Source: a virus
Taxonomy: Duplodnaviria > Heunggongvirae > Uroviricota > Caudoviricetes
Length of the DNA stretch: 64,000 nucleotides
Strand: one strand, 5' to 3'
Virus record (IMG/VR): IMGVR_UViG_3300042863_001217
This document shows positions 1 to 36,152 of the stretch, one piece after another; position 1 is the stretch's first letter; each line of letters opens with the position of its first letter. The translations under genes and the position numbers were made by a program. The notes under the pieces are model-generated. The model had not been told where the DNA came from. It searched no databases and saw only the letters and a program-made list of their open reading frames with translations.

Positions 1-108
1 AGGGTCATGATTCATGCACTTAACCAACTGCATGCCCTTTCTTTGATTTTCTACCATTATTTAATATTTTATATTATGTTCGTTATATGATCTTTTTTAA
101 ATCAAGTT

Positions 109-912
109 TCAAATTAGATTAGAATTTACAAAATGCACTATATTATTTAAATCTGGATTGTGAAGTGTCCAATGATTAAATCCAAGTGATTCCATTCTAT
201 CGTAGATTTTTTGGGCTTTAGTTTCACCAATAGCATCAACGTGTAATTCCATAGATACACATCGAGTATTCTTTAGAAACTGATCACTCATACCATCAAA
301 TGCAAATATCTCTGCACCTTCAATATCCATCTTAATAAAGTCAGGTTGTTCAATTAATCTATTATTAATCATGGTGTCTACCGTCATTGACATTACGTTC
401 TGTAAAACGCCATCATCATATTTAACAATCGAGCTTCCACCTGGACAATCTGATTTGTAAGCTATTTTAACTAATTGATTATCAGTATTTGAAATGGCTA
501 CTTTGAACACTTCACATTGCTCTGGTTTATTTAGTAAGAGAAGCAAAAAGTTTTCATTTGTAGGTTCTACACTATAAATCTTCTTGGCACCTTTTGCCGC
601 AGCAAATCTACTAAAAACACCAATATTTGCACCTAAGTCCAAAACCACATCATTCGGTCTGATTTCGCATGCACCTCTTTGGTATAAGCAATCGTCAGTA
701 TAACCTCCAGAATGACAGTCAAATATTTCATAGTAGATCAAAACGGGTTCATCTATGATTCCCGCACTATAACTAGGGAAAACGTTATTTCGCACTACAT
801 ATTCCTCTTTAGCTAAATCTCTGTATTGAAGCCTAGATTCAGTTGAGGTCCAATAATTTGTATTTTGTTCTTTCATAATTCCTGTATTAATCATTATATG
901 TTTCCTTTGCAT
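109..912 (-). CDS. FkbM-family SAM-dependent methyltransferase
   Basis: 267-aa ORF. Motif VLDLGANIGVFSRF is typical of the FkbM/Methyltransf_21 family. Confidence 0.55.
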   Translation of the reverse strand: MQRKHIMINTGIMKEQNTNYWTSTESRLQYRDLAKEEYVVRNNVFPSYSAGIIDEPVLIYYEIFDCHSGGYTDDCLYQRGACEIRPNDVVLDLGANIGVFSRFAAAKGAKKIYSVEPTNENFLLLLLNKPEQCEVFKVAISNTDNQLVKIAYKSDCPGGSSIVKYDDGVLQNVMSMTVDTMINNRLIEQPDFIKMDIEGAEIFAFDGMSDQFLKNTRCVSMELHVDAIGETKAQKIYDRMESLGFNHWTLHNPDLNNIVHFVNSNLI

Positions 913-2511
913 TTAGTTTCATCTCTCATAGTTAGTTCAAGTCTCTGGGAAAATTAGATTTTGGGAAAATTTCAGCTAGGGAAAACCCCACCAAACGCTT
1001 CACACCATTAGGTACCCACATGGTCGTTCCGACCCAAATCTAGGCCCTGCTTAGTTTCTGGCACACTACTAATACACATGGATGTGGTATCCCAATTTCT
1101 ATTCTGTACCAGTGATTGCTCTGGCCAACTCGCAGTTACTCTGATCCTCTTTAAATACCATTGGCGTGGACGTGTGACCATAGTAAGTCTTGGATAGTCG
1201 CTGGGGTTTTTGGCATTCTGCAGGGTCAGTCTTGGTCTAGGTCACTGATTAGTTATATGGCTCAGATCAAGTGTGTAAGACACATCACTCTGTGTACTCT
1301 CTTTTTTTTCGCTGGTCCTTAAGGTATTCTGGTTCTTTAAGTACTAAGACATTTTAAGTGTCTAAGTGTCTAAGTTAATCCTCTATGGTTTATCTGAGTA
1401 CTCTGAATGCTCTGATACCTGGAAGTCATTTCTTGTCGCGCGCGCTTCATGTCGATCGGGCCCTTGGAGCTTAGTCCCCCGGGGACCCAATTTTTTGGGA
1501 ACCGGCGACATTGAACAAGTCGCGATTCTGTCGGGCCTGTCTGGCTCTTGAGTACTCTTTGTTTTGGGGGTATACAATCGAGGGTCTGATCCGAGTCCTC
1601 TAAGTGGTTTGAGTTGTTTGGCGCCATGAATAGGCCCTGAAGCGCTGGCCCCGGGGCGAGATAGTTAACGCCCATAGTTGACAGTCGAAAATGCGCTATA
1701 GCTAATATAGTAAGTGAAGGTCCATACCTTAAAATCGGCGTTTAATCGCGAGACATGCGCAATGCGCTTTTTAAAACCATGAATGGATCATGAGTGCTTA
1801 GTGTCTTATATGCTCCATGTGTTATATTAGGCCTTTATATACTCTGAGGCTTATAGAGCTCTCATGTGTATATGCTATATGTGTATATGTTTATACCCTA
1901 TATGGTTAATTAGCTTTATTAGCTTTATTGCTCTATATGGCTTAATTAGCTTATTTGTCTTAATTGCGTACAGGCTAAGGCAGGTAAGCTCTGGCGTACT
2001 GTTGGTGCTCTAGGCTCTATAGAGCTCTGTAGCTCTCTGTCTCTCTACTGTTATTGGCTAATCAGCTGATACTGTTGGTGTGCTGGTGCTCTTGGTGTGT
2101 CTGTGCTCTCTGTAGTACCTATTAGCCTATTAGTCTATTGCTAATATTAGCTCTCTGGTGAATTATTAGTCCTCTGTAGATATTAGCGCTATATTTGCTT
2201 CCGGCGAGCGCTCTGGGAGCTTATTTGGACTTATTTAGCTCCTGGGAAGCTCCTGGTGACTATATTTAGCTCCCGGAGAGCTCCTGGGAAGCTTCCTGGG
2301 GCTTACTCTGGGGAAGCTCCTGGGGACTTACTCCTGGAAGCTTCCTGGGAGCGCTGCTGGCGCTAATCTTACCTCTGGCGTGAAATCCTACTTTATATGC
2401 TCCGGCGGGGCTTTTGTTTCAAAGTGATCTGGGTAGTCTGGGGTCCTTGCACGAAATGTTCGTAACTTTACTAAAAATAAGTGCTTAAATATTTTTTTAT
2501 TTGGATTATTA

Positions 2512-2548
2512 TGTGTATATTTACTCTATAATTAAAACACTAAACAAT
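2512..2548 (+). promoter_or_regulatory. Conserved promoter/leader module (GTGTATATTTACTCTATAATTAAAAC...) directly upstream of the ATG
   Basis: One of at least 7 near-identical copies in the plus cassette. Contains a TATAAT -10-like hexamer. The copy runs into the start codon ATGTCAAA. Confidence 0.45.
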
Positions 2549-3046
2549 ATGTCAAACATGATTTTTAACCAAGAGAAGATTAACCAAGTAGATTTTATTA
2601 ATGGCCGTACTGGTCAGTATAGAGCAGTAGTAAAAGTTAAAGCCGGTTTTATGACCGTAGTAGATGACTTAGGTATACAATGTAACTGGGCTTCAGGTGC
2701 CAGATGGAAGTCTGCCTTATCTGTATTCCAATCATTTAAACGTGGTGCTTTACAGACCATTGAATTTAAGGCTGATGGGTCTGACTCTTGGCTTACTGTC
2801 TTTGCCCGTAAAGGTAATAAGATCATGTTAATGGACACTGATATGTTCTTAACTATGACTGTCGGTGATATTAACCAAGACTGGTCTACCACTAACCTTT
2901 ATAGTCAAGCTAACTATAAGATGGCTGGAGCTAAGACATGGGCTGATAAAGCCTTTGTTAGTAATACTGTTACTATAGAGGAGTTAAATCCTATTATAGC
3001 TGGTGTTGACTTCTCTGAGTCTTTGGCTGCCTTAGCTGCTCTTTAA
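2549..3046 (+). CDS. Hypothetical early/accessory protein (start trimmed to MSNMIFNQ...)
   Basis: In-frame ATG immediately after the conserved leader module. The annotated upstream M would lie inside the promoter element. Confidence 0.5.
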   Translation: MSNMIFNQEKINQVDFINGRTGQYRAVVKVKAGFMTVVDDLGIQCNWASGARWKSALSVFQSFKRGALQTIEFKADGSDSWLTVFARKGNKIMLMDTDMFLTMTVGDINQDWSTTNLYSQANYKMAGAKTWADKAFVSNTVTIEELNPIIAGVDFSESLAALAAL

Positions 3047-3093
3047 GATGTTCGTAACTTTTATCAGTTACCTATGTTCCATGTCATTTAAAT

Positions 3094-3129
3094 TGTGTAT
3101 ATTTACTCTATAATTAAAACTTAAACAAT
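3094..3129 (+). promoter_or_regulatory. Conserved promoter/leader module
   Basis: TGTGTATATTTACTCTATAATTAAAACTTAAACAAT followed by ATGTCAAAA. Confidence 0.45.
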
Positions 3130-3525
3130 ATGTCAAAAATTAATCAATTCGATCGTCAGTCATTACGCGCACTTCGTGCAGATTTGGACTCAGCAATGGC
3201 TGCCATTGCAACTAAGTATGGTATTCAGTTAAATGCTGGTAATATCTCATTCACATCAGATACTGCTACTATTAAAGTGGCTGCTGGTATTATCAAGAAC
3301 GGTACAGCTGTTACTGCTGAAGCCAAAGCCTTTGATCAGTATAAGCGTATGGTAGGTCTGGGTCACTTAAGTGTTGGTGATAGCATTACTCTTCAAGGTA
3401 AAGCATATACCATCACTGGTTATAAGCCTCGCTCTAGTAAAGCGCCTGTATGTGTTGAACATCGTGGTCGTGGCTTTAAGGTGTCAGTTGACATGGTTAA
3501 GATGTACAACTCAGTGCCTGCCTAA
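3130..3525 (+). CDS. Hypothetical protein
   Basis: 131-aa ORF preceded by the conserved module and followed by a hairpin plus T-run. Confidence 0.5.
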   Translation: MSKINQFDRQSLRALRADLDSAMAAIATKYGIQLNAGNISFTSDTATIKVAAGIIKNGTAVTAEAKAFDQYKRMVGLGHLSVGDSITLQGKAYTITGYKPRSSKAPVCVEHRGRGFKVSVDMVKMYNSVPA

Positions 3526-3549
3526 CTGTTAATAACTTTTGTGAAAATA

Positions 3550-3582
3550 GGTTGACAATTGCTTTGGGTTGTCAACCTTTTC
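3550..3582 (+). terminator. Rho-independent terminator-like hairpin
   Basis: GGTTGACAA-ttgctttggg-TTGTCAACC followed by TTTT. Confidence 0.45.
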
Positions 3583-4010
3583 ACGTATATTTACATATGA
3601 ATTTAAAAATAAGACACATGAAGTAGATGCTTAAAAATCAAAAAAGAGGTAGCACCTCAACAAGGGTTCGCTTTTTTCTCGGAGCGCAGAGGGTAGACTC
3701 CGACCTACGTGACACCCCCTCCCTCGATAGTGGTCCAAATGTTCGTAACTTTTATGAAAATAAATGCGCAATTGTTTTGGGTTGTCATTTAAATCACGTA
3801 TATTTACTATGTAATTAAAAATAAGCTATATGACGTAGATGACTAAAAATTCAAAAAGGGATAAAATCCCAACAGGGGCGGTCCTTTCAAAAGAAGGAGG
3901 AAGAGTAGACTCCGACCTGCTTTATATTTTTTTTATAAAGGCTGTTCATAACTATGTTAATAACTTTATTGAATTATTTTTAGGGGCCTATGTCCGGTTA
4001 AAGAAATTTG

Positions 4011-4046
4011 TTGTATATTTACTGTATAATTAAAACACTAAAAGAT
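4011..4046 (+). promoter_or_regulatory. Conserved promoter/leader module
   Basis: TTGTATATTTACTGTATAATTAAAACACTAAAAGAT followed by ATGTCAAAC. Confidence 0.45.
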
Positions 4047-4364
4047 ATGTCAAACATCAAAGATCAAATTCAGTCATGGGTAGCTACCGAAGCTCAAGCT
4101 ACTATTAATAACTACTATACTAAGGCATTGCCTAGTTTGCGTGTTCCAGAGCTTACCGTTAAATTTGGACAGAAATATGCCCAAGTCTGGAATGGTACTA
4201 CTATATGGGCTTTTATTGCTTTAACTGATGAGGTTGCCAAAGCACAACGTGTAGGTGACTTATTGAAGCCTGCTTCGTGGAGGGCTCCAGCTAAACATAG
4301 TCGTGGTAACATTATTGAAGGTACCGCTGCTTATGGTCCTTATGGTCCAGAGTACATAAAATAA
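4047..4364 (+). CDS. Hypothetical protein (start trimmed to MSNIKDQ...)
   Basis: ATG directly after the leader module. 105 aa. Confidence 0.5.
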   Translation: MSNIKDQIQSWVATEAQATINNYYTKALPSLRVPELTVKFGQKYAQVWNGTTIWAFIALTDEVAKAQRVGDLLKPASWRAPAKHSRGNIIEGTAAYGPYGPEYIK

Positions 4365-4406
4365 TTTGAAAATACTTGTCTAAATATTTTTTTATGTCGA
4401 GTATTA

Positions 4407-4443
4407 TGTGTATATTAGCTTTATAATTAAAAACAAACAGATC
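4407..4443 (+). promoter_or_regulatory. Conserved promoter/leader module (variant)
   Basis: TGTGTATATTAGCTTTATAATTAAAAACAAACAGATC followed by ATG. Confidence 0.4.
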
Positions 4444-4821
4444 ATGCCTTATATTTCAAAAGAACAAGTTAAAGTAAAACGAGAAGCCCTTAAGAAAGCC
4501 TTACCTCAGTTTAAGATGTCTATTACTACTGATAACTATAGTGGTATTAAAGTGGCTATCATGAAAGGTCCAGTTGATTTCGGTATTGAGTATGCTCAGT
4601 TAAATGAGTATGCTGATTATCGCGAACCACGTTGGGACAGAGACACTGAACAATATGTGTCCAATCCAGCTATAGCTGACCTAATGGAGACTGTGATGCC
4701 TATCTTAAATGATGGTATGCGTGAAGGTCATGATGATAGTGATTATGGTCATATACCTGATTACTATACTTGGGTTCATATTGGTCAATGGGATAAAGCC
4801 TACGAGGTGGTTAATGCGTAA
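4444..4821 (+). CDS. Hypothetical protein (MPYISKEQ...)
   Basis: ORF beginning after the leader module. 125 aa. Confidence 0.5.
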   Translation: MPYISKEQVKVKREALKKALPQFKMSITTDNYSGIKVAIMKGPVDFGIEYAQLNEYADYREPRWDRDTEQYVSNPAIADLMETVMPILNDGMREGHDDSDYGHIPDYYTWVHIGQWDKAYEVVNA

Positions 4822-5155
4822 ACTTAAAAAGTCTGATGTTAATGCTGATACACTGATGAGGTGGTCTAATCGTAAGTTAGGTCCCTCTAGGTGCAAACGT
4901 ATATTGATTGTAGATCGTAAAAGCCCTGATTACGGTTGGTATGATTGGCATGGTACAGTCTACATCAATATACGCAATATTAGTTCTATGACTTCAGTAT
5001 ACAGAACTATGGCGCACGAATGGACTCATGCTCAACAAACATATGGTCGGTATAATGCCTATCATAAGAAGCATGGCTATAAAAACAATCCATATGAGGT
5101 TGCTGCCCGCCGGAGAGAAAGAACTTGCTTTAGTGAATTGTTCGTAACTTTATAG
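4814..5155 (+). CDS. Small HExxH protein, putative zinc metallopeptidase-like
   Basis: Start ATG overlaps the stop of the upstream gene (aATGcgTAA). Begins MRKLKKSD. Contains MAHEWTHAQQ (an HExxH motif). The C-terminal codons overlap the TTGTTCGTAACTTTATAG box. Confidence 0.35.
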   Translation: MRKLKKSDVNADTLMRWSNRKLGPSRCKRILIVDRKSPDYGWYDWHGTVYINIRNISSMTSVYRTMAHEWTHAQQTYGRYNAYHKKHGYKNNPYEVAARRRERTCFSELFVTL

Positions 5156-5194
5156 AAAATAATTCACAAAAAGCTTTGGGTTGTCGTTTATATC

Positions 5195-5230
5195 GTGTAT
5201 ATTTACTCTATAATTAAAACACTAACAGAT
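5195..5230 (+). promoter_or_regulatory. Conserved promoter/leader module
   Basis: CGTGTATATTTACTCTATAATTAAAACACTAACAGAT followed by ATGTCAAAA. Confidence 0.45.
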
Positions 5231-5533
5231 ATGTCAAAAGAAACAATTTTAGTCCACACTCAATTTTACGAAAACTACAACGTCGGTCCTGATGGATTCG
5301 GTGAAACTCCATCTTGGAAAGCCAAAGGTGGTCATACCTTCTCAATTGAGATGGATGCTGATCTTTTAATGTACTCTGACTCTAAGGCTATTTTTAGCAA
5401 AATGTTAGAGATGCATAACACTATTGCAGAGCGTTTTGAATATATAGAGTATGAAATTCAATGGTCTAAACCAAGTCTTCTTGGGTATCAGGCTGATTAT
5501 ATAGCAGCTAACGAGGCTTTACAAACAGCCTAA
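5231..5533 (+). CDS. Hypothetical protein (MSKETIL...)
   Basis: 100-aa ORF after the leader module. Confidence 0.5.
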   Translation: MSKETILVHTQFYENYNVGPDGFGETPSWKAKGGHTFSIEMDADLLMYSDSKAIFSKMLEMHNTIAERFEYIEYEIQWSKPSLLGYQADYIAANEALQTA

Positions 5534-5586
5534 TCTTTTTTTGAAACAATTCATAATTTAACCATATAAAAATAAAAACAAATCTT

Positions 5587-6738
5587 ATGTCAGCAATCGC
5601 AACATTATCATCAGCAGTTCTTGAAAATCGTAGAGCTGAAACACGTAACTCTCAGTCAATTCGTAAAACTGTATCAGTACGTGATATTAACCTTGTTAAC
5701 GATACAACTATCGAGTATCAAGGTAAACGTCTAGAGATTACATCAGACGCATTCAAGTCTCTTATGAAATTGATCGGTATGTCAGCAACCTTTGCTGCTA
5801 AGTTCGAATCTCTATTTAACCCTGAGACCAAAGCAAAATTCGTTAACCAAATGAAAAACGCTATGGCAGCTCAGTTGAATGAGATCACCATTATATTGTC
5901 TCCACAGACTAAGAAGGTAGTTGGTTTCTCTAAGAATGCAACAGACCTTATTTCTCACGAACGTTTCATTTCATTGGCTGATCAAATTATCGATCAACAT
6001 GGCTTTGAAGTTACCAATTGGGGTGTAGATGCTACTAAAGGTTCAGTTATTATCAATGCTTTTAATCCTAAGGCACAATTTGACCTTGCAGGTCTTGGTT
6101 TAGCCAATGAGGTTTTCACCGCTGGTGTTACTCTTAAGAATTCACCTTTCGGAGGTATACAAGTTATGCCTTATGTTAACAGAATGTTCTGTACGAATGG
6201 CTTAACTACAGGATTGGCTAGCGAATCTTATTCACTATCTAATTTAAATCCTGAATCGATGGAGAACTTTCACCAACATATGAGTCAATTGCGTAAGAAT
6301 GGATTTGTACCTACTAATTTTGCTGAAACTGTGAAATTGGCTACTCAAACTCCAGCTTCTCTATGGGAAATGGAACGTGCATATAGTTCAATCAAACCAA
6401 TGGTTGGCGCACAAGCTGACTCTTGGATCCCTTTGAATGATAACTACTCAGCGTATACTAAAGCAGGTATGATGCCAGAAGGTTTCTCAGCTGCTCAAAA
6501 GAAAAACGCACGTACTGATCAATCAATCTGGTCATTGGTAAATGGTATGACTCACGTCGCTACACATGCACCAGAACAATTAGCATTTAACATGACTGAT
6601 AGAGAATCTACAGACTTGATGGTTAAAGCTGGTGGTATCTTCGGTAAGCAATTTGATTTAGGTAACACAATTCGTTCACCTTTCAAAGCAGATGCTCACT
6701 TAGAGGCTGAAATGCAAGTAGGAGCTTTATTAAACTAA
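5587..6738 (+). CDS. Hypothetical protein, 383 aa
   Basis: Long ORF with no recognisable motif. Lacks the conserved leader module. Followed by a long structured 3' region and a terminator. Confidence 0.55.
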   Translation: MSAIATLSSAVLENRRAETRNSQSIRKTVSVRDINLVNDTTIEYQGKRLEITSDAFKSLMKLIGMSATFAAKFESLFNPETKAKFVNQMKNAMAAQLNEITIILSPQTKKVVGFSKNATDLISHERFISLADQIIDQHGFEVTNWGVDATKGSVIINAFNPKAQFDLAGLGLANEVFTAGVTLKNSPFGGIQVMPYVNRMFCTNGLTTGLASESYSLSNLNPESMENFHQHMSQLRKNGFVPTNFAETVKLATQTPASLWEMERAYSSIKPMVGAQADSWIPLNDNYSAYTKAGMMPEGFSAAQKKNARTDQSIWSLVNGMTHVATHAPEQLAFNMTDRESTDLMVKAGGIFGKQFDLGNTIRSPFKADAHLEAEMQVGALLN

Positions 6739-6883
6739 AAACTCGTAACCTCATCCAGATCACAGACAATCGAAACTGTAAAATGGAGCTGTTGAAGATG
6801 AGGTTACTATGAAAACTGGGAGTATGGTTAGAGCAGCGTAAATTCTAGATAGCATTAAGACTCACGACCTAAGTCCCTTCCAA

Positions 6884-6913
6884 GCCGGTACTACATGTAC
6901 CGGCTTTCTTTTT
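6884..6913 (+). terminator. Rho-independent terminator
   Basis: GCCGGTAC-tacat-GTACCGGC followed by TTTCTTTTT. Confidence 0.6.
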
Positions 6914-6994
6914 GCTCCAAAGGCTGCCATTGGTGAATTATTTTCGCTTTTTTATGAAAATAAACGCAAATAAGCTTTGGGTTGTCATTTATTA

Positions 6995-7031
6995 TGTGTA
7001 TATTTACCTTATAATTAAAACACTAACAGAT
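6995..7031 (+). promoter_or_regulatory. Conserved promoter/leader module
   Basis: TGTGTATATTTACCTTATAATTAAAACACTAACAGAT followed by ATG. Confidence 0.45.
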
Positions 7032-7226
7032 ATGAAAGTCACAGTCAACATTTTACCATTTTTAGGAGCCTTAGTTATGGGTTTCATTAGTTACTCTATT
7101 ATGCAAGGTACTGCTCAAGAAGTGGTTCATTTTGCGGGTGTATTAAACGAGATCTTCACATTGGTTATGGCCATGATGATGACCTTAGGTCTTTTGATAA
7201 TGTCAATCTCAAAGGCTGCCAAATAA
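7032..7226 (+). CDS. Small membrane protein (MKVTVNILPFLGALVMGF...)
   Basis: 64 aa with two hydrophobic segments. ATG sits directly after the leader module. Confidence 0.4.
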   Translation: MKVTVNILPFLGALVMGFISYSIMQGTAQEVVHFAGVLNEIFTLVMAMMMTLGLLIMSISKAAK

Positions 7227-7273
7227 ATTGTTCGTAACTTTTACCTAATTTATTTTGGGTTGTCAAATAAAAG

Positions 7274-7310
7274 TTGTATATTAGCTCTATAATTAAAAGT
7301 CAAACACTAT
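7274..7310 (+). promoter_or_regulatory. Conserved promoter/leader module (variant)
   Basis: TTGTATATTAGCTCTATAATTAAAAGTCAAACACTAT followed by ATGTCAAAA. Confidence 0.4.
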
Positions 7311-8453
7311 ATGTCAAAATCATCTTACACAATTCACAAATTAGAGGCTGTTCCTAATAAGAAGCCTAATTTCAATCTTAAAAATATTGCTGATTCCGAG
7401 GACCAAGTCCTGATCACAGCAGAAAATCCTAAGTATGCCTATGTAGCAGAAAATCAGGGTCGTATTATTAACATCAACGGAGTTATGGCTTCAGGTGTTT
7501 TAAAGATGACCTCATCAGCTGACTACTATGATGCTTATGGTCTTAAACAAAAAACCAAGGTTGAGGTAGCCGCACCTAAAGCAGCTCCACTTAAAATCTC
7601 ATTAACCAAGTTAGATGACCTTAATTTCTCTGACGAGTTATTTAACCCTCTAACTACTGGTTTGGCAATAGACCAATTCTTATCTAATGACGGTGGCTTT
7701 ATGCCAGGTTCAAACATCATGGCTGCAGGTGCACCGGGTGTAGGTAAGACTACAGTTCTTTTAGAAACCTTATACGCAGTACAAAAGCAAGATCCTACCA
7801 AGCGTGTGCTGTTCATCTCAGCTGAAATGAACCAATTGGACATGGCTAGATACCTAAAAAGATTCCCACATTGGGGTCAGTTACCAATCTTATTCTTAAG
7901 TGACTATGTTGACCAAGATCCTCAAGCCGTAATAGAGCAAACATTGCAACAAGGTTGGGACATAGTCTTAACAGATAGTTACACCGAGGTGAATGACACA
8001 GTTAAAGAAGCTTGTAACATGACCAGAGGTAAAACTGAAAAGTGGTTCTTGGACATGATGATTGCCAATAACCAAGGTAAGAACCAAACCAAGAAGTATA
8101 CTACCTTCATCACCATTTTACAGTTATCTAAGGGTGGTACATTCGTCGGGTCCAACAAACTAAAACACATGACCACAGCCATGCTAGAATTAAACTGGAA
8201 AGGCAATGAGAATTCAGCTGAGCGTTATATGGAATTCAGTAAGAACCGTTTAGGCCAAGTAGGTCATAAGTTATTCTTTGACTTTACAGACGGAGTTAGT
8301 TTTGACACCAAGAGATACAAGCGAGATCTACTTAACTTGGAATTAATTGAGGATGAGAGAGCTAAGCTGACATCAGAAGAGGATAGCTTTGACCGTCTTT
8401 TCGGTGCTATACCTAATGAAAGTGACTCCACCCCGGCGGTAGAAGTAAACTAA
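7311..8453 (+). CDS. RecA-fold P-loop ATPase, DnaB-like helicase domain
   Basis: Walker A motif GAPGVGKTT. Downstream VLFISAEM resembles DnaB motif H1a (SLEM). ILQLSKGG resembles DnaB motif H3. Confidence 0.5.
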   Translation: MSKSSYTIHKLEAVPNKKPNFNLKNIADSEDQVLITAENPKYAYVAENQGRIININGVMASGVLKMTSSADYYDAYGLKQKTKVEVAAPKAAPLKISLTKLDDLNFSDELFNPLTTGLAIDQFLSNDGGFMPGSNIMAAGAPGVGKTTVLLETLYAVQKQDPTKRVLFISAEMNQLDMARYLKRFPHWGQLPILFLSDYVDQDPQAVIEQTLQQGWDIVLTDSYTEVNDTVKEACNMTRGKTEKWFLDMMIANNQGKNQTKKYTTFITILQLSKGGTFVGSNKLKHMTTAMLELNWKGNENSAERYMEFSKNRLGQVGHKLFFDFTDGVSFDTKRYKRDLLNLELIEDERAKLTSEEDSFDRLFGAIPNESDSTPAVEVN

Positions 8454-9117
8454 TTGCTCATTGGGCTCAGTGGAGCTCTTCAAATAATATCCGACCCGGC
8501 GGAGACATAGCACCGGGGCTTTTAATTATATCATGGGAGGCTTTGACACCTCCGTGCCCACACCAGACCTGACTAGTTTGGTGTTGTGGGATCCAGGGAG
8601 CTGACAGGGCTGTGGGAGCCTCTGGAGTGTGTATGTGTTAGCGTTCGCGTTTGACTCATCTCCTGGCGCACCGCAACACCAATGAACGATACTAATAAGC
8701 GCTATATATCTGATCCCCTGGGGACCTTACTGGATACGAGTTCGTTTTAAATTGTGGGGTTTGGTATTCTTACCACTTTTTACCACTTTATACCACTAAA
8801 TACCATAACGGGGCTTAAAACCTTAAAAGGGCTTAAAAGAGACGCTAAGGCGCTCCATTGGTGGTGGGACCATTACCATTTTTGTCTATTGGTATATCTG
8901 GTCTTTATTGCCCATACTATATAAGGGATTGCTAGAAGGATTACTATGTATATCATATTGGTTTATCTGGTATCTGGGTTAGGGTTTGAGTTTATCCTTA
9001 TCCCTTTGGAATTATCTTATATCTATCTAGTCTATTAGGATATGGTGTTTATTGTGTTGGTAGCGCGCGTTTTGGTTATGCTGGTTTTGATGGAAATAAT
9101 TGGGTTGGGTTGCGTGC

Positions 9118-9147
9118 AAAAAAAAGACCTCTTAATTAGAGGCCTTC
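9118..9147 (-). terminator. Rho-independent terminator (minus strand)
   Basis: Minus strand reads AGGCCTCTAATTAAGAGGTCT followed by TTTTTTTT, just downstream of the stop at 9172. Confidence 0.55.
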
Positions 9148-9171
9148 TGTGTGTGTATTGTGTGTGTTTGA

Positions 9172-9861
9172 TTATACGCTATAACCTTCACCTTTTAAAT
9201 AGTCTGTAACATCGTTAAGTGCATCTTCAAATCCTTTAGAAGATTCAACACCAGCATTAGGTCCCCATTCTTGATCCATCCAATCTTCTAATGAAGACCA
9301 CATACTATCTTTCCAGTCTTTGTTTTTTGGAAATTCATCCATAAATTCATCTCCAATATTATAAGAGTCAATATCAGACCATTTTTTCTTTTCGTTTAAT
9401 GTTTTAGAAAATTGTTCGAATAGTTTAATGTGTTTCATTCCGTGTTTGGTACTCGATGTGTTTGATTCATTAATATCGTATCCATCCCAGTCCCATTTGT
9501 AACCTTTACCATCAGCAGCTGTACCTTGATAACCATACATTCCTTTTGTAAATCCATCAAAGAATATAGCAACTCCATTGTCTTCAAGCTCTTGAGCTTT
9601 TTCTCTTGCAGCATCTTCATCGATGGCTTCAACTGTAACATCACCATTGTATACTATGTATAAGATTCCTTTATCAAATGTTAATTCAGCTCCATGGAAC
9701 CATTCTTCACCATCATTTTCTTCGTCATTCATTGGTTCTTCACCCATTTCGAAGTTAGGTATTTGTGAGAGTCCAAATTTTAGAGCCTCTTTTTCTGTTT
9801 TATAGAAATTTACTTGAGAATAATCAGGTGCATTTTCTGCTACGTAATATACTTTTGCCAT
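9172..9861 (-). CDS. Hypothetical protein with an internal in-frame copy of the conserved MKHIKLFEQF leader
   Basis: 229-aa ORF. Residues ...STKHG-MKHIKLFEQFSKTLNE... lie mid-protein. This could be two genes fused in frame, or an alternative start. Confidence 0.45.
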   Translation of the reverse strand: MAKVYYVAENAPDYSQVNFYKTEKEALKFGLSQIPNFEMGEEPMNDEENDGEEWFHGAELTFDKGILYIVYNGDVTVEAIDEDAAREKAQELEDNGVAIFFDGFTKGMYGYQGTAADGKGYKWDWDGYDINESNTSSTKHGMKHIKLFEQFSKTLNEKKKWSDIDSYNIGDEFMDEFPKNKDWKDSMWSSLEDWMDQEWGPNAGVESSKGFEDALNDVTDYLKGEGYSV

Positions 9862-9878
9862 TTTATTTTTATTTTATT

Positions 9879-10565
9879 TTATTTATCTAACATTGCATTC
9901 TGCAATTCTTTAAGTTTTGCTTCAGCTTCTTTTTGTCCTTTTTCTGTTTTTTTATAGACCTCTTTTTTTTCTTTAACATTATCACAACCAATCTTATAAT
10001 CACTACAAGAATATTGTGCTCCTGTTAAAGAATGTGCTGCTTCACTAAATGCTGCCCCAGCATTTTTGTACTCAGTAATGTAATATGAAAGCCAAGCTTT
10101 AGTTTCTGCAGAAAAATCTTTGCTTATTTTTTGCATTTTATCTTCAAGTTTTTTTGCATTAACTTCATTTTCATCTTCGATAGCTTTGTCTCTTTTAGCA
10201 AGACCGTCCATCATTCTTTCTTCTTCAGCTGGACAATTGTTTTTCATATAAGACCATCTAAAAGATTGTCTACTATTTATGAGCGTGTTATATTTGTTTA
10301 TAAATTTAGCAAGTTGACCATATTCCTCTTTGGCATCAGCTCCACCTTGTAGTTCTGCTAATTCACCTTCCATTTCAACTTTCTGTGCATCCAAGTCTGA
10401 TAATTGAAGCTCAGCTTCATCTTCATCCATGTCTCCTTTTTCTACAGCAGACTGAATTTCTTCCATTCTATCATCAAGTTCAGTTAGATCATTTTGAAGA
10501 TCTTTGATTTTTTTGTCATTACTAGCCTCACCAATAAATTGTTCAAATAGTTTAATATGTTTCAT
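9879..10565 (-). CDS. Leader-family protein (MKHIKLFEQFIGE...), coiled-coil rich
   Basis: Conserved N-terminal decapeptide. Acidic coiled-coil body. Confidence 0.6.
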   Translation of the reverse strand: MKHIKLFEQFIGEASNDKKIKDLQNDLTELDDRMEEIQSAVEKGDMDEDEAELQLSDLDAQKVEMEGELAELQGGADAKEEYGQLAKFINKYNTLINSRQSFRWSYMKNNCPAEEERMMDGLAKRDKAIEDENEVNAKKLEDKMQKISKDFSAETKAWLSYYITEYKNAGAAFSEAAHSLTGAQYSCSDYKIGCDNVKEKKEVYKKTEKGQKEAEAKLKELQNAMLDK

Positions 10566-10600
10566 GTTTGTATTTTGTTTTTATTTTTGTTTTTATTTAA

Positions 10601-11344
10601 TTAGTCCCAAACTTCAGTGTATGTACCACCTACTAACATTACTCCTTGTTGCCAATCAAAATCTAAACGATCCTTTTTGAACATGTAATGTAATTTAATA
10701 ATAGATTCAGTTTCTTCTTCTGATAAACCTAATGCAATATTAAGATCTTTTATTTTGTATGCTTTATCGTAAGATTTTGTGATGTGTACTGATGCTTGAC
10801 TTCCGTAACCTTGATCTCTTGATCCAATTTGTTTATACTCTGCTTTATCTGCTTTCCAAAATGCAAGTATACGTTGGATCATATCGCTGGTTAGAGCTTC
10901 TTTTTGTGTAGATTTAATCCAATTTTTAATATCTTTAGCGAAATTAACTTTCTTTGGATTTGATACATCAATTGCTGTGTAATAATTTATGTAATCTTGT
11001 CCAGATACACCTATACTAGCTCTACCTGGTTTTGGTTGTGCTTTACTAATAACTTCAAAATACGTATAAGAAGCTTTAATATACATTGGACTTATATTAC
11101 AGTCTTGTAATATCTTTGCTCGTTTTTTGTCAATCCATGACCAATCAGGAGCCTCATATGAATTAGTTATTTGCACATATCCATTACTGTAGTCATATGT
11201 TTTAGAATCTTTACCACCTCTTTGGTAACCTACATCTGAAAGGTTTGATAATAAAGCTTTTTCGAAATCTTGTACTAATGCAACTTCTTCAGGATTTACT
11301 TCACCTTCATTAATGAATTGTTCAAATAATTTAATCTTCTTCAT
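10601..11344 (-). CDS. Leader-family protein (MKKIKLFEQFINEG...)
   Basis: Conserved N-terminus. 247 aa. Confidence 0.6.
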   Translation of the reverse strand: MKKIKLFEQFINEGEVNPEEVALVQDFEKALLSNLSDVGYQRGGKDSKTYDYSNGYVQITNSYEAPDWSWIDKKRAKILQDCNISPMYIKASYTYFEVISKAQPKPGRASIGVSGQDYINYYTAIDVSNPKKVNFAKDIKNWIKSTQKEALTSDMIQRILAFWKADKAEYKQIGSRDQGYGSQASVHITKSYDKAYKIKDLNIALGLSEEETESIIKLHYMFKKDRLDFDWQQGVMLVGGTYTEVWD

Positions 11345-11354
11345 ATCTGTTTTA

Positions 11355-11903
11355 TTATTTTGCGTCTATTGATAAGAATAGGCTTTGTCTAATCTCTATG
11401 TTGTTTTGACCAACACTCGACATATATTCTCCTGCTATGATAGTTTCAATTCCAGATACTAATGCGTCGTTTTGCATTCCACTTAGTTTTCTTACATATT
11501 TACCAGCATCTACATCATCTGCAAATCCAACGTTAATTACAAAATCACTAGGAATTCTAACGAATAACTCTGTACCATCTGGTCTATTAAGACCATTAAT
11601 TTGATCATCTACCCATTCTTGTTTGCTTAATGCAGCCATAATATAAACAATAGCTTCTTTATCTTTGACTTGTTTCATAACTTCGTCAGCAATAATCTCA
11701 GCTCCTTCTTTATCAGCCCATTTTGACCAAACTTGATTAATTTCTTTAAGAGTATCTTGAACGTCTCCTTCAAATTTTATTTTTTCAACCTCTTTTTTAA
11801 ATGCAAATAACACTTTTCCAGCGATACCTTTAGCACCATACATACCTGTCATTTGATATGCTTTTTCATTTACGAATTGTTCGAATAATTTAATGTGTTT
11901 CAT
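11355..11903 (-). CDS. Leader-family protein (MKHIKLFEQFVNEK...)
   Basis: Conserved N-terminus. 182 aa. Confidence 0.6.
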   Translation of the reverse strand: MKHIKLFEQFVNEKAYQMTGMYGAKGIAGKVLFAFKKEVEKIKFEGDVQDTLKEINQVWSKWADKEGAEIIADEVMKQVKDKEAIVYIMAALSKQEWVDDQINGLNRPDGTELFVRIPSDFVINVGFADDVDAGKYVRKLSGMQNDALVSGIETIIAGEYMSSVGQNNIEIRQSLFLSIDAK

Positions 11904-11906
11904 GTT

Positions 11907-12224
11907 CTATTTAGATATTTTATTCTTGCTTTCAAATTCAGTTACTTTAGCATATGCCGAAGACTTCATATCGCCTTTTGCTTTTTTAACAAGTTCTGCG
12001 AACTCTTTAGCTGTTTTCATGTCTGGAAATGGAAGTGAAGTTGTATAATCTGGTCCACTATATACATCAAATGGTGCATATTGATCATATTCTTGTTCTG
12101 TATAAACTCCAAATTGATCACTTTCTATATCAATGATGTTTTCTTTTTTAATAGGAAGGAATACTATCCATTCTTGAGATTTTCCTTCTTTTACGAATTC
12201 TTCATATAATTTTGCGTACTTCAT
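11907..12224 (-). CDS. Leader-family protein (MKYAKLYEEFVKEG...)
   Basis: Conserved N-terminus. 105 aa. Confidence 0.55.
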   Translation of the reverse strand: MKYAKLYEEFVKEGKSQEWIVFLPIKKENIIDIESDQFGVYTEQEYDQYAPFDVYSGPDYTTSLPFPDMKTAKEFAELVKKAKGDMKSSAYAKVTEFESKNKISK

Positions 12225-12817
12225 TATGTCATTTTTGGGTATTTTTTCTTAATTTCTTTATAGAATTTCTTGTAGTTTGTACCAGACATGTGATCTTCAG
12301 CTGCTCTAAGCAAATCTTCTAAAGAAGTCCACATTGTATTTGCTAATTGGTCTTGTGTTGTTGAAACTTGAGCCATTCTGTCTAGAATAGAATCAATTAT
12401 TTCAGGATTTAAAACAGTTTCAGTGCTAGGTTTTTCTGGACCCGCTGCTCTTTTAAGTGTCCACCAATCAACTTTCTTAGGAATAGTGTATGAAACAATT
12501 CCTTTTTGTTGGTCATTTGGACTAATTTGTCCAGGTTTTCCAATATTACTAGTGATTTTATCTAAATCTAAATTATCATCAAAACCTTTTAATGCTTTCT
12601 GAATATCTTTAGTTAGATCCACATCTGCCATATTTGGCTCGGTTCTAAGATATATCATTGAAGTCGATGACATGTTAAATTCAACGCCTTTTACTTTAGA
12701 AAGCTCTTTCTTAAATTGTTTTTGATACTCATCAACATCTAACCCATTATTATATCCTGGGAAAATATCCATCTTAGCTTCATTAATAAATTCTTCGTAT
12801 AGTTTTATGTACTTCAT
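12224..12817 (-). CDS. Leader-family protein (MKYIKLYEEFINEA...)
   Basis: Conserved N-terminus. 197 aa. Start overlaps the neighbouring stop (ATGA). Confidence 0.6.
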   Translation of the reverse strand: MKYIKLYEEFINEAKMDIFPGYNNGLDVDEYQKQFKKELSKVKGVEFNMSSTSMIYLRTEPNMADVDLTKDIQKALKGFDDNLDLDKITSNIGKPGQISPNDQQKGIVSYTIPKKVDWWTLKRAAGPEKPSTETVLNPEIIDSILDRMAQVSTTQDQLANTMWTSLEDLLRAAEDHMSGTNYKKFYKEIKKKYPKMT

Positions 12818-21029: not shown

Positions 21030-24000
21030 TTATTTCGGTGTACAATTTGAGTTAGTAAATATTGCAGTTACTGTAAATCCAACTCCATCGTAGTCTGATT
21101 GATTACCAGTAACATATACATATTTATTATCCCATAATTGAGCAGCGACATTATTGTATATGCTTTCTGCAAATTTAGTATTACTTGCATGATCCCAAAC
21201 TAATAATACTGATGCGGTTCCAGTTGCATCTACACCCCATAGAGTGTATCTAACTTCTTGTGTATTATCACTTACACCGTATGAAGACTCAATTCCAGTT
21301 AAAATCATACCTTCTAAAGCAAATGTATATGGTATTAATACAAATGATTTTTGAAGTGATTGATTTGTAATTTTTTCATCTCTTGGAGTTGCACAAATTG
21401 ATACATGTTCATAACATGATCCTATGCCCGCTTCTCCAGGTTGTCCAGGTTGTCCATTGATACCTGATGTACCATTTGTTCCTGAAGAACCATTTGTACC
21501 ATTTGTTCCTGAAGAACCATTAGTTCCAGATGTACCATTTGTACCATGTGTTCCTGAAGTTCCATTAGTACCACTTGTACCATCTCTACCAGAAGAACCG
21601 CTTGTACCATCTTTACCTGAAGTTCCATTAGTACCACTCGTACCATTTAAACCAGAAGTACCATTAGTTCCTGATGTTCCATTAGTTCCATTAATTCCTG
21701 AAGAACCATTAGTTCCAGATGTACCATTAGTACCACTTGTACCATTAGTTCCAGATGTACCATTAATACCGCTTGAACCGCTTGTACCATCTCTACCTGA
21801 AGAACCATTTGTACCAGAAGTACCATTAGTTCCTGAAGAACCATTAGTTCCTGATGTTCCATTAGTTCCAGATGTACCATTAGTACCATGTGTTCCTGAA
21901 GTTCCATTAGTTCCAGAAGTTCCATTAGTACCGCTTGTACCATTAGAACCATTTATTCCTGAAGATCCATTAGTTCCTGAAGTTCCACGCTCACCGTTTG
22001 TACCACTAGTTCCATTTGTACCTGAAGAACCATTAGTTCCTGAAGTACCATTTGCGCCAGATGTACCATTAGTTCCTGAAGAACCATTAGTACCACTTGT
22101 ACCGTTAGTTCCATGTGTTCCTGAAGAACCATTAGTTCCTGATGTTCCATTAGTTCCTGATGTTCCATTAGTACCACTTGTTCCATTAGTTCCATTAGTT
22201 CCTGAAGTTCCACGCTCTCCGTTTGTACCACTAGTACCATTTAAACCAGATGTTCCATTAGTTCCTGAAGAACCATTAGTACCACTAGTACCATTAATTC
22301 CAGAAGAACCACTAGTACCATTAATTCCAGAAGAACCATTTGCACCTGAAGTTCCATTTATACCATCTCTACCTGAAGAACCATCTGTACCTGAAGTTCC
22401 ACGCTCTCCGTTTATACCATCAGTTCCACTTGTTCCATTTATACCACTAGTACCATTAGTTCCAGAAGTTCCGTTAGTTCCTGAAGTTCCGTTAGTTCCA
22501 TGTGTACCTGAAGTACCATTAGTTCCAGAAGTTCCGTTAGTTCCACTTGTTCCATTTGCACCTGAAGTTCCGTTAGTACCATCTCTACCTGAAGAACCAT
22601 TTGTACCACTAGTACCATTAGTTCCTGAAGTTCCGTTAGTTCCACTTGTTCCATTTGCACCTGAAGTTCCGTTAGTTCCATGTGTACCTGAAGTTCCGTT
22701 AGTTCCAGAAGAACCATTAGTTCCTGAAGATCCATTTGTTCCAGAAGAACCATTAGTACCTGATGTACCACGTTCTCCATTTATACCACTTGAACCATCA
22801 GTTCCAGAAGTTCCATCTAATCCATTACGACCATCAATACCACTAGTTCCATTAGTTCCAGAAGTTCCATTTATACCGCTTGTGCCATTTGAACCATTAG
22901 TACCACTAGTTCCATTTGTTCCAGAAGAACCATTAGTTCCATTTGTTCCAGAAGAACCATTAGTACCAGATGTACCATTAGTTCCACTAGTTCCATTTGT
23001 TCCAGAAGAACCATTAGTTCCTGAAGTTCCATTTGAACCATTAGTACCACTCGTACCGTTTGTTCCAGAAGAACCATTAGTTCCTGATGTACCATTAGCA
23101 CCGCTTGTGCCATTTGAACCATTTAAACCCGATGTACCATTAGTTCCAGAAGAACCATTAGTTCCAGAAGTTCCAGTATCACCTTTAGCGCCTGAAGTTC
23201 CATTAGTACCAGATGTACCATTAGTTCCAGAAGAACCATTAGTTCCTGAAGAACCATCAGCACCATCAAATCCAGATGTACCATTATTACCATTAGTTCC
23301 TGAAGTTCCGTTAGTTCCTGAAGTTCCGTGTGATCCATCCATTCCACTAGTACCATTAATACCAGAAGATCCATCATTACCTCTTGAACCTGAAGTTCCA
23401 TCAGTTCCATTTGAACCTGAAGTTCCATTAGTTCCTGAAGTTCCATTAGTTCCTGAAGAACCATTAGTTCCTGAAGTTCCATCAGATCCATTTGTACCAT
23501 TTGTTCCATTTGTTCCAGAAGATCCATCAGAACCATTAGTTCCATTAGTTCCATTTGTTCCAGAAGAACCATTAGTTCCATTTGTTCCAGAAGAACCGCT
23601 TGTTCCAGGATTTCCAGTTACACCGCTTGTTCCATTTGTTCCATTTGTTCCAGAAGAACCATTTGTTCCAGAAGAACCATTAGTTCCTGAAGAACCATTT
23701 GTTCCTGAAGAACCATTAGATCCATTTGTTCCAGATGTACCATTAGAACCCGCAGGTCCTTCAGTTGCACCTAAAGATGAAACTATATGTGAATAATTTG
23801 AAACGCCTTCTGTATAAAATTTAATAGTTCTATTTTGATTATCATCGTTAATAGCATAAATTTGAACTAATACTTTATCAGTAGGACTTATATAATGTTG
23901 TTCTAAAAATAAGTCTTGATATACATCCACTGGAATTGCAGTAGAAGTGTCCCATCCTATTAATGTAGGTGTAGTTGTTCCCCACACAGCAATTGGTATT

Positions 24001-24914
24001 CCACCTGCATCTGTACGAGTAACCTTAACATATACTTGAATAGCATGTGAATCTACTTCTTTAGTGAAGTGCATTAAAAATGATTGAATACCAGCAGATA
24101 CTACTGCAACACCTAATCCAACTGGAGTTATAAATTGAGTAACTAATACATCTGATTGCAACGGAGTTAAATCAGTAGTTACTATTTGTTGTACACTAGA
24201 TACTGGGATTGGTGAAATTTCATTAAGATCATTTGCACCGCCACCATTATTAACTACAGTAACTGATTCATTCATATAGAATATTTGACCAGTGCTATAA
24301 CCTGCTTCTCCTTGTAAACCATTAACTCCACTTGAACCTGAAGTTCCATCAATTCCTGATGTACCATTAGTACCACTTGTTCCATCAATTCCAGAAGTAC
24401 CATTAGTACCATCTAAACCGTTTAAACTAACTTCTACCCATGGATCATTACCATTAGTTGAAGATGGTGTATATAATTGTGGTAAAAATGTTGGAGGTCC
24501 ACCTATAACATTTGTGTATATTTGTGTACTATTAGGTTTTAAAAGACCTGCGCGAACCCATTGTGGTAACGCTTGCCATTCAGTATCACCTAAAACACCA
24601 TTATTGCCCCAATATCCTTTAGGTATTAAGACATAAAATTTATTTTCTTCAATGACATAAACTAGCATACCAACTGATCGAATACCCGTTGTATATCCAC
24701 CATCGTTTGAAACTGTAAAACCAATATGTGTAACTGGTGCAGGTGCTTCACCCCAAATAGGTAAGGCATTTCTTTCTTCAATTGTAAATACCTTTTGATA
24801 CCCACCCTTTACATGTTGTGCATGTACAATTCCTTCATAAGGACTTAATGATGAACTTGGCGAAATAAAATTACCAAAGGCGTATTGTGTTGAAACTGGT
24901 CTAGTAAATCCCAT
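21030..24914 (-). CDS. Collagen-like repeat protein (virion fibre candidate), 1294 aa
   Basis: Several hundred residues of uninterrupted G-X-Y triplets (GTNGTSGTNGSSG...), flanked by non-collagenous N- and C-terminal domains. Confidence 0.7.
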   Translation of the reverse strand: MGFTRPVSTQYAFGNFISPSSSLSPYEGIVHAQHVKGGYQKVFTIEERNALPIWGEAPAPVTHIGFTVSNDGGYTTGIRSVGMLVYVIEENKFYVLIPKGYWGNNGVLGDTEWQALPQWVRAGLLKPNSTQIYTNVIGGPPTFLPQLYTPSSTNGNDPWVEVSLNGLDGTNGTSGIDGTSGTNGTSGIDGTSGSSGVNGLQGEAGYSTGQIFYMNESVTVVNNGGGANDLNEISPIPVSSVQQIVTTDLTPLQSDVLVTQFITPVGLGVAVVSAGIQSFLMHFTKEVDSHAIQVYVKVTRTDAGGIPIAVWGTTTPTLIGWDTSTAIPVDVYQDLFLEQHYISPTDKVLVQIYAINDDNQNRTIKFYTEGVSNYSHIVSSLGATEGPAGSNGTSGTNGSNGSSGTNGSSGTNGSSGTNGSSGTNGTNGTSGVTGNPGTSGSSGTNGTNGSSGTNGTNGTNGSDGSSGTNGTNGTNGSDGTSGTNGSSGTNGTSGTNGTSGSNGTDGTSGSRGNDGSSGINGTSGMDGSHGTSGTNGTSGTNGNNGTSGFDGADGSSGTNGSSGTNGTSGTNGTSGAKGDTGTSGTNGSSGTNGTSGLNGSNGTSGANGTSGTNGSSGTNGTSGTNGSNGTSGTNGSSGTNGTSGTNGTSGTNGSSGTNGTNGSSGTNGTSGTNGSNGTSGINGTSGTNGTSGIDGRNGLDGTSGTDGSSGINGERGTSGTNGSSGTNGSSGTNGSSGTNGTSGTHGTNGTSGANGTSGTNGTSGTNGTSGTNGSSGRDGTNGTSGANGTSGTNGTSGTNGTSGTHGTNGTSGTNGTSGTNGTSGINGTSGTDGINGERGTSGTDGSSGRDGINGTSGANGSSGINGTSGSSGINGTSGTNGSSGTNGTSGLNGTSGTNGERGTSGTNGTNGTSGTNGTSGTNGTSGTNGSSGTHGTNGTSGTNGSSGTNGTSGANGTSGTNGSSGTNGTSGTNGERGTSGTNGSSGINGSNGTSGTNGTSGTNGTSGTHGTNGTSGTNGTSGTNGSSGTNGTSGTNGSSGRDGTSGSSGINGTSGTNGTSGTNGTSGTNGSSGINGTNGTSGTNGTSGLNGTSGTNGTSGKDGTSGSSGRDGTSGTNGTSGTHGTNGTSGTNGSSGTNGTNGSSGTNGTSGINGQPGQPGEAGIGSCYEHVSICATPRDEKITNQSLQKSFVLIPYTFALEGMILTGIESSYGVSDNTQEVRYTLWGVDATGTASVLLVWDHASNTKFAESIYNNVAAQLWDNKYVYVTGNQSDYDGVGFTVTAIFTNSNCTPK
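21434..23760 (-). repeat. Tandem 9-bp-unit DNA repeats encoding collagen G-X-Y triplets
   Basis: Low-complexity periodic DNA. Produces artefactual ORFs on the opposite strand. Confidence 0.7.
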
Positions 24915-36119: not shown

Positions 36120-36152
36120 ACTATAAATATTTTTTTAATTATATTATATATC

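Follow-up and report, generated by a model that had tools for sequence, protein, structure and literature searches.

MraZ is among the most conserved bacterial regulators, and its physiological role is still debated. Its boxes have the core GTG(G/T), are separated by six spacer nucleotides and occur in three or four copies, with one MraZ subunit per box (PMC12957436). In B. subtilis, three GTGG[A/T]G motifs with 4-nt spacers are needed for repression; an effect of MraZ dosage on division is known (bioRxiv 10.1101/2022.02.09.479790). The locus described here is a non-coding region, positions 8454-9170 of a 64,000-nt stretch of phage DNA that is called the window throughout. Almost all genes of the window lie on the minus strand; the sole exception is a plus-strand cassette at 2501-8453, and the region is the junction of this early-type cassette with the minus-strand bulk of a marine phage genome of ~240 kb. 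It contains four boxes of the kind found in mraZ operators, upstream of a predicted leftward phage promoter. The region is read here, at somewhat better than even odds (roughly 0.55), as a control region whose leftward promoter, antisense to the early cassette, would respond to host MraZ or titrate it.

Host-regulator sites on phages are already known as a kind, as in the Pho boxes of cyanophages and the LexA or Fur boxes of temperate phages; MraZ sites on a phage are unreported in the searchable literature. The injection-stop region of T5 has DnaA boxes, with proposed host-protein binding (bioRxiv 10.1101/866236). Like these, the present region carries a host-regulator site in a non-coding control region, which would couple the phage to the state of the host or borrow a host protein; unlike them, it involves a regulator of cell division rather than of phosphate supply, the SOS response or replication. 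Two further systems are similar in layout. In lambda, the convergent pO/OOP promoter is placed beside the ori iterons, where an early operon has its 3' end, and cross-talk between convergent promoters is documented (PMC3985674). The present locus likewise has a promoter facing the end of an early unit, a predicted non-coding antisense transcript and a repeat array just behind, but it has no defined short RNA or terminator, its boxes are of MraZ type rather than O-protein iterons, and there is no sequence similarity. T4 oriE combines evenly spaced 12-nt repeats with an early promoter at a strand-switch location (PMC3016281). Evenly spaced short direct repeats, a non-coding strand-switch spot and a nearby promoter are common to both, whereas no binder is known and no role proven for the T4 repeats, and those of the present phage match a host operator and lack an unwinding element.

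The array (8771..8806, minus strand) has boxes at 8771, 8781 and 8791, each reading TACCAC on the plus strand, and a degenerate TACCAT at 8801. The minus strand thus shows ATGGTA followed by three GTGGTA, and GTGGTA lies on the sense strand of the predicted leftward transcript. The period is exactly 10 nt in the window and in every relative, while the spacers vary (TTTT, TTTA, TAAA, TTCC, TACC and others). Relatives have 3-5 boxes per gap, four of them in 20 of the 24 that bear the array. The first box lies 56 nt from a palindrome in most relatives (54-57 nt), and 66 nt from it if preceded by an additional degenerate box. Adjacent pairs of TACCAC number 62 in 728 kb of phage sequence, far more than chance would give; all lie in this gap and none elsewhere, and nhmmer found no second copy of the module to which the array belongs.

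Four TACCAC-N4 units were also sought in one genome per species from 185,579 bacterial and archaeal species. The scan gave 47 loci. In 19 of them the array precedes mraZ by 0-63 nt, and GTGGTA is on the sense strand of that gene. Of the 28 loci without a nearby mraZ, one is archaeal, and the other 27 are tandem arrays built from a single 10- or 20-nt unit. Three different spacers, as in the phage, occur at 11 loci, and 10 of these are directly upstream of mraZ. Thirteen of the 19 mraZ-linked loci are labelled Flavobacteriales, Bacteroidales, Bacteroidetes or Chlorobiota. A Pfam check of two of them (L098 and L122) showed mraZ-rsmH with a downstream penicillin-binding-protein gene, and also ftsL in L098. 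The four-box pattern in IMG/VR returned only tandem-repeat arrays and unrelated contigs.

The phage array therefore has the elements that define MraZ-binding repeats (MBRs): at least three direct repeats with a GTG(G/T) core, a 10-nt period and free spacers. With the MBRs of the bacterial mra promoter (Pmra) it shares the GTGG core, three to four boxes, the period, the variable spacers and the orientation of the downstream unit, and with the upstream regions of mraZ in Flavobacteriales/Bacteroidota also the same GTGGTA hexamer and the number of four boxes. Its boxes are identical to those of the mraZ operators of the presumed host clade. In contrast to the bacterial sites, it does not lie at an mraZ or dcw promoter: no such gene is nearby, the array precedes the phage box GATATATA by ~60-100 nt, and the palindrome that accompanies it is absent from bacterial mraZ loci. 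A MraZ homologue was not found in the window or the phage loci by tblastn or with a profile of 18 MraZ proteins. Since the window and the phage loci contain no mraZ or dcw gene and the array stands upstream of a phage box, it is classed here as a predicted operator mimic on the phage, not as Pmra, with MraZ as its putative ligand. A DnaA-box reading of TTTACCAC was rejected by eye, as 2-3 positions do not fit TTWTNCACA.

On the minus strand, from upstream to downstream, the module consists of the four GTGGTA boxes, 56 nt, the palindrome TCCCCNGGGGA, 3 nt, the box GATATATA and ~110 nt of untranslated sequence, beyond which lies the antisense side of the cassette terminators and then that of the last cassette gene, an ATPase. 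The box (8703..8710) points left to the 3' end of the cassette. Its plus-strand form, TATATATC, adjoins the palindrome; the first-pass annotation recognised neither this as a minus-strand promoter box nor the 10-nt repeats as MraZ-type boxes. The 8-mer GATATATA has nine copies on the minus strand of the window (58981, 45856, 41308, 36152, 32783, 29694, 18227, 13131 and 8710) and none on the plus strand. One copy is located 8 nt before tRNA-Ala (58965-58891), and others 12-45 nt before minus-strand gene starts. In relatives there are 49 copies on the minus against 2 on the plus strand, an orthologous copy upstream of a glycosyltransferase gene is kept in an 86%-related genome (L094), and the box in this gap is present in all subclades. 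Most simply, the gap copy would be a leftward phage promoter. The idea of a TATATAT box acting as a rightward promoter that feeds a G-rich R-loop origin was dropped on finding this strand-specific class.

The palindrome TCCCCTGGGGA (8714..8724) keeps a fixed position, 3 nt upstream of the promoter box and 12 nt from where the TATATAT box starts. The right-hand site of the largest subclade has the form TCCCCTGGG(G/A), and the last G is often lost. Strict symmetry of the right palindrome is not supported: TCCCCTGGGA occurs in 8 of 22 close relatives, and the nearest two (L014, L015) have GGGAG. Of 75 right gaps, 26 contain the looser pattern CCCC-N-GGG[GA]; shuffled sequences gave 2.3 on average and 7 at most. 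About 20 loci have it in the left block, and the rest of the 573 kb has none. The right palindrome of one subclade is located elsewhere in the gap.

Downstream of the box, ~110 nt are conserved (8593..8700, minus strand), with the sub-blocks GTGTGTATGTGT (8627-8638), GCGTTCGCG (8641-8649), TTTGACTCATCTCC (8650-8663) and TGAACGAT (8683-8690). Because it lies downstream of the leftward promoter, this block is predicted to be the 5' part of a non-coding minus-strand transcript. Across subclades the order of blocks is fixed (GTGTRTGT, GCGCG, TTTGAC/TTTAAC, TGAACG, TATATATC) and their spacing variable. The distance from box to TGAACG is about 5, 13 or 45 nt depending on the subclade, which fits a transcribed leader rather than a promoter element. 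Identity of the module between relatives is 64-67%, against 52-54% at four-fold sites of the ATPase gene, and the comparison points to purifying selection on the module. RNAalifold gave no common structure on either strand outside the terminators. A small open reading frame (ORF) at the TGAACGAT block, with an ATG, GTG or TTG start, was rejected: a 1-nt indel shifts its frame while the DNA is still conserved, and the block is non-coding. Without coding capacity or shared structure, the module would therefore be a set of sequence-specific sites. Rfam gave no significant match in 1-12000 (E up to 1) and, at gathering score, one tRNA only in eight related loci; a tRNA scan found none in the region.

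The last cassette gene (7311-8453, plus strand, stop codon 8451-8453) encodes a RecA/RadA/DnaB-like P-loop ATPase, for which marine and estuarine metagenomes yielded at least 442 relatives. The gap is kept in more than 440 relatives, and every locus that spans it (~45 relatives and three ~240-kb contigs) has the order ATPase on the plus strand, non-coding gap, convergent minus-strand genes. The gap mostly measures 500-880 nt, and 255 nt in one subclade. The three ~240-kb contigs are independent and carry the locus each at a different offset; the genome therefore assembles as circular or permuted. The cassette proteins match only distant relatives, in huge/jumbo phages. The gene content includes a ClpB-like ATPase, thymidylate synthase and glycosyltransferases; together with a SprB repeat, leaders without Shine-Dalgarno sequences and a promoter type like TTTG-N19-TAnnTTT, it indicates that the host probably belongs to Bacteroidota/Flavobacteriales. 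By its gene set the genome resembles the recently described 'moraphages', a likeness only and not a group assignment. A blastn search of the region against 50,697 phage records gave no match.

In the proposed mechanism, three tandem plus-strand hairpins would end transcription of the cassette, and a minus-strand terminator would end the incoming operon. Oligomers of host MraZ would occupy the array and determine how active the adjoining leftward promoter is, whether by repression or activation. With the array at about -60 to -100 from the box, modulation would be expected rather than plain occlusion. The non-coding transcript may then collide with or pair to the 3' end of the early transcripts and so oppose expression of the cassette, in the manner of the lambda pO/OOP promoter (PMC3985674). 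The tandem terminators would shield the leftward promoter from the cassette's own transcription. Each replicated genome would add one high-affinity operator and draw MraZ off the host dcw promoter.

Several points weigh against a MraZ-responsive promoter. The array is found in only 24 of the 53 relatives with a full-length gap; the rest have other repeats or none, though the promoter box and the conserved block are kept. In subclades lacking TACCAC (gaps of L037, L066, L005, L076 and L086) the same place is taken by ACTGG at a 9-10-nt period or by GGGA-rich repeats, which may be operators of other hosts or factors. Furthermore, bacterial boxes overlap or abut Pmra, whereas those of the phage are ~60-100 nt upstream of the promoter box, so that simple steric repression is unlikely. 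The box is called a promoter from its position and strand bias, the host is itself a prediction, and a phage-encoded binder elsewhere in the ~240-kb genome is possible. Finally, the reading leaves the conservation of the ~110-nt block and the binder of the palindrome unaccounted for.

A more elaborate form of the mechanism makes MraZ both clock and lever. Early in infection the cell's fixed amount of MraZ would cover the four-box array and hold the promoter in one state; multiplication of the array would titrate MraZ and flip the promoter, antisense transcription would shut the early cassette, and the freed host dcw operon would alter division or envelope synthesis to the benefit of the phage. 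A single dimeric factor would bind the palindromes at the two flanks and loop or insulate the cassette of 7 kb, and other subclades would mimic the operators of their own hosts. As a whole, this scheme is speculative and unlikely to hold in full, and a single dimeric binder acting at both flanks is possible.

Titration may also be the only role. The array would then be a pure decoy that soaks up host MraZ as phage DNA multiplies, altering the host division and cell-wall operon, and its adjacency to a promoter would be incidental. The grammar of the array, its single occurrence per genome, the lack of a phage MraZ in the screened sequence and the effect of MraZ dosage on division all agree with this. 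Yet diverged relatives hold the array at a strict 56 nt from the palindrome and promoter, an argument for functional coupling, and one four-box site per genome is a modest sink. A role as decoy alone is thus considered rather unlikely.

Somewhat less probable is a replication origin in which the repeats are initiator iterons and the adjoining promoter activates or primes, as in the T4 oriE (PMC3016281) and lambda pO (PMC3985674) models. The unique array does lie at a switch of the transcribed strand, beside the gene for the RecA/DnaB/RadA-like ATPase. Its repeats match the operator of a host regulator rather than the iterons of any initiator, and no initiator was identified. An AT-rich unwinding element exceeding the genome average is absent, and the promoter would fire into 52%-GC DNA, giving a C/A-rich RNA. 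Half of the relatives lack the array, and the N-terminal type of the ATPase does not follow that of the repeats. At the N-terminus of this protein (7311-7600 and the genes of relatives), the initial 75-97 residues are of two types, GRVIN..MTSSADY and GKLLS..WSGRKDYEG, on one conserved C-terminal core, which looks like domain shuffling; the N-terminal domain was rejected as the repeat binder, as its types do not track the array.

Another candidate is a phage protein from outside the window (AbrB/SpoVT/MraZ-like or unrelated), the likeness to mraZ operators then being convergent. The screen covered 64 kb plus flanks of the ~240-kb genome. When presence of cassette genes was compared with presence of the array, the best association was that of an LPD29-domain protein (p = 2e-4; 13 of 16 against 2 of 16), which is confounded by phylogeny. 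LPD29 is not known as a DNA-binding fold. The match extends over hexamer, box number, period and polarity, in operators of the predicted host phylum, and a phage-encoded binder is given a low probability.

A structured non-coding RNA gene in the GC-rich part of the gap is improbable. This part is GC-rich within an AT-rich genome and conserved in many relatives, and its hairpins B and C covary, but there is no Rfam match and no RNAalifold consensus on either strand beyond the terminator hairpins, folding z-scores are only -1.0 to -1.6, and conservation is of sequence blocks rather than pairs. Still less can be said for a DNA-entry pause or anchor of the T5 type, in which such blocks would lie on either side of the first-entering genes and be bound by a host protein. 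An early-type cassette does lie between two conserved untranslated blocks with many repeats and palindromes, and one of these has host-regulator boxes; assemblies look circular or permuted with no sign of a fixed genome end near the cassette, and there is no long inverted repeat between the blocks. MraZ, too, is not a known membrane-bound protein.

The idea with which the locus was originally described, that the two non-coding blocks form a pair of boundaries for recombination or inversion, or are duplicates of an origin or packaging element, has next to no probability left: the palindrome is conserved at both flanks and several metagenome contigs end in both blocks, but all relatives are collinear, the contig ends share no repeats, the block profiles miss each other and the offset of the region differs among the three ~240-kb contigs that pass through it, so that no fixed genome end lies here. 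Dot-plot comparison of left and right and a check of relatives for a flipped cassette had been suggested. By blastn and nhmmer the two blocks share only chance-level words (blastn E = 2.1 for the palindrome pair), and the nhmmer profile of each block misses the other (best E = 0.44 and >2), leaving no likeness beyond the palindrome. The orientation is the same in all ~45 gap-spanning relatives and the three ~240-kb contigs. Contigs ending in both blocks carry no direct or inverted terminal repeat. A palindrome of 11-13 nt is all that the two boundaries have in common, in contrast to an invertible cassette, which would have inverted or direct repeats at its two boundaries and occur in two orientations. 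What survives of the proposed paired sites is a cluster of cis-acting, probably protein-binding sites and a palindrome conserved in both blocks.

Contig ends are frequent here: 26 of 60 right ends fall within 700 nt past the ATPase stop, against 3-6 per other 700-nt bin. Since the 3' half of the gap is mosaic even among close relatives and the adjoining genes also vary, these breaks are best ascribed to micro-diversity. One IMG/VR contig stops inside the region, and its end sequence is in no other IMG/VR contig, giving no indication of a genome end or terminal repeat. The near-identical contig L014 covers window positions 2283-9128 only.

The composition described in the first-pass annotation is borne out. 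No ORF in 8454-9170 is longer than 56 aa. The GC content is 43.4% against 33.2% in the window, with only 3% of 717-nt windows as high, and the excess is concentrated in 8454-8740 (52% GC). The skews of GC and AT are +0.15 and -0.20 for the region as a whole, and the GT bias is strongest in 8741-9170 (+0.24 and -0.26). The two blocks flank the only plus-strand cassette of the window, and the sequence common to both, TCCCCYGGGGACC, has exactly two copies in 64 kb (1475 and 8714). Word repeats are also present, in lower numbers than claimed: TACCACTTT occurs twice exactly instead of three times, GGGCTTAAAA is repeated as two exact copies and one partial (8811..8839, loosely conserved in relatives) and not as three exact ones, and TGGTTTTGATGG occurs once. 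The actual repeat unit of the region is TACCAC with its 10-nt period.

Both hairpins reported earlier are present and belong to a series of three past the ATPase stop. Hairpin A (8495..8519, plus strand; CCCGG 8495-8499, CCGGG 8513-8517) is the first terminator-like one; most relatives have a hairpin of variable sequence at this site, and one subclade lacks it. It is followed by the conserved box TTTTAATTATA (8520..8530). A form of this box, TTTAATTA (TTTTAATTAYA), lies ~40 nt past the stop in 66 of 75 relatives and is retained where hairpin A is absent. The reverse complement of TTTTAATTATA, TATAATTAAAA, is the core of the cassette promoter/leader motif, with eight copies upstream of cassette genes and three upstream of minus-strand genes; no conserved minus-strand ORF was found after TATAATTAAAA. 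Hairpin B (8535..8553, plus strand), with GGAGG-ctttgaca-CCTCC at 8536-8553, is kept despite sequence change. In the 50 nt after the box the mean folding z is -2.4 relative to shuffles, with 62% of 55 distinct relatives below -2. Hairpin C (8560..8584, plus strand) has a 9-bp stem and an invariant loop, CTGACTA; 97% of cells are paired, and compensatory changes affect 5 of 9 pairs in 13 relatives. It forms in plus-strand RNA only, because its G-U/U-G pairs become C-A mismatches on the minus strand. T-runs follow hairpin B or C in many relatives (TTTTTT after hairpin C in L094). The three hairpins are predicted terminators of the cassette. The conserved loop of hairpin C is not needed by a terminator, and for this reason it may be an RNA-protein recognition site.

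The incoming minus-strand operon appears to end at a canonical intrinsic terminator (9118..9144; GGCCTCT aatta AGAGGTC, then T8) that aligns to the terminator part of an Rfam leader model and is conserved in L015. Beyond the array, TGGTGGTGGGACCATTACCA (8859..8878, plus strand) is a terminator-like match that includes an inverted GTGGTG box (8861-8866) facing the array and a weak hairpin followed by TTTTTG; TTGGTGGT or a variant is kept 40-60 nt beyond the array in most relatives. The GT-rich spacer at 8880..9117 is hypervariable and mosaic, near-identical relatives diverging abruptly there. Chi-like and telomere-like readings of this GT-rich tail were considered and dropped.

The left non-coding block (913-2500) measures 1.6 kb with 44.5% GC. 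Its palindrome, (G)TCCCCCGGGGAC (1475..1487), is the partner of the right one, and relatives conserve it together with its flanks in their left blocks. It is a true 13-nt palindrome whose central base alternates between C and G. The conserved core around GTCCCCCGGGGAC reads GGGCCC..GCTCTGT-pal-ACCCAATnTTTTGGGAACCGRCGACATT..GTCGCG. The block also contains a second palindrome, CCCCGGGG, at 1649, ATTAGC-type repeats at 1906-2190 and an inverted repeat with 34-nt arms (2266-2366), within which contig L014 starts.

Almost every cassette gene is preceded by a promoter/leader motif of ~45 nt, TTTG-N19-GTATATT(T/A)(A/G)C-NN-TATAATTAAAACACTAAACA-N-ATG. It is found on the plus strand at 2480-2545, 3065-3130, 3770-3838, 3985-4050, 4380-4440, 5165-5230, 6965-7030 and 7245-7310, and on the minus strand at 36133, 36857 and 58763. 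The motif is similar to Bacteroidota promoters of the -33/-7 type and lacks a Shine-Dalgarno sequence; read in reverse complement, its core gives the TTTTAATTAYA box past the ATPase stop. Within the cassette, a 383-aa protein (5587-6738) has more than 480 homologues with 66-89% identity and is always encoded upstream of the ATPase gene. Pfam, PHROG and NCBIfam contain no family for it, and comparison of its AlphaFold model (pLDDT 72) with the PDB gave nothing at E <= 0.001 (best E = 0.36). In relative L003 a tRNA gene lies at 8744-8815 within the plus-strand cassette. Directly to the right of the region, 9879-12817 (minus strand) holds consecutive paralogues with the N-terminus MK(H/Y)IKLFE(Q/E)F; in the ~240-kb relatives L094-L096 this site has one 151-aa gene or none and is thus a variable island. 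A 790-aa ORF (21424-23796, plus strand) opposite a 1294-aa collagen-repeat tail-fibre-like gene (21030-24914, minus strand) is most likely an artefact of repeat composition.

A copy of the mraZ operator kept across a family of marine jumbo phages suggests that phages may gain from hijacking MraZ occupancy during infection, either as a signal or as a resource, and the family would provide a natural system in which to study such hijacking. The boxes also hint, from sequence alone, at the host of an uncultured phage lineage (Flavobacteriales/Bacteroidota). Further cases may be sought by a simple rule, namely phased GTGG boxes that lie outside mraZ.

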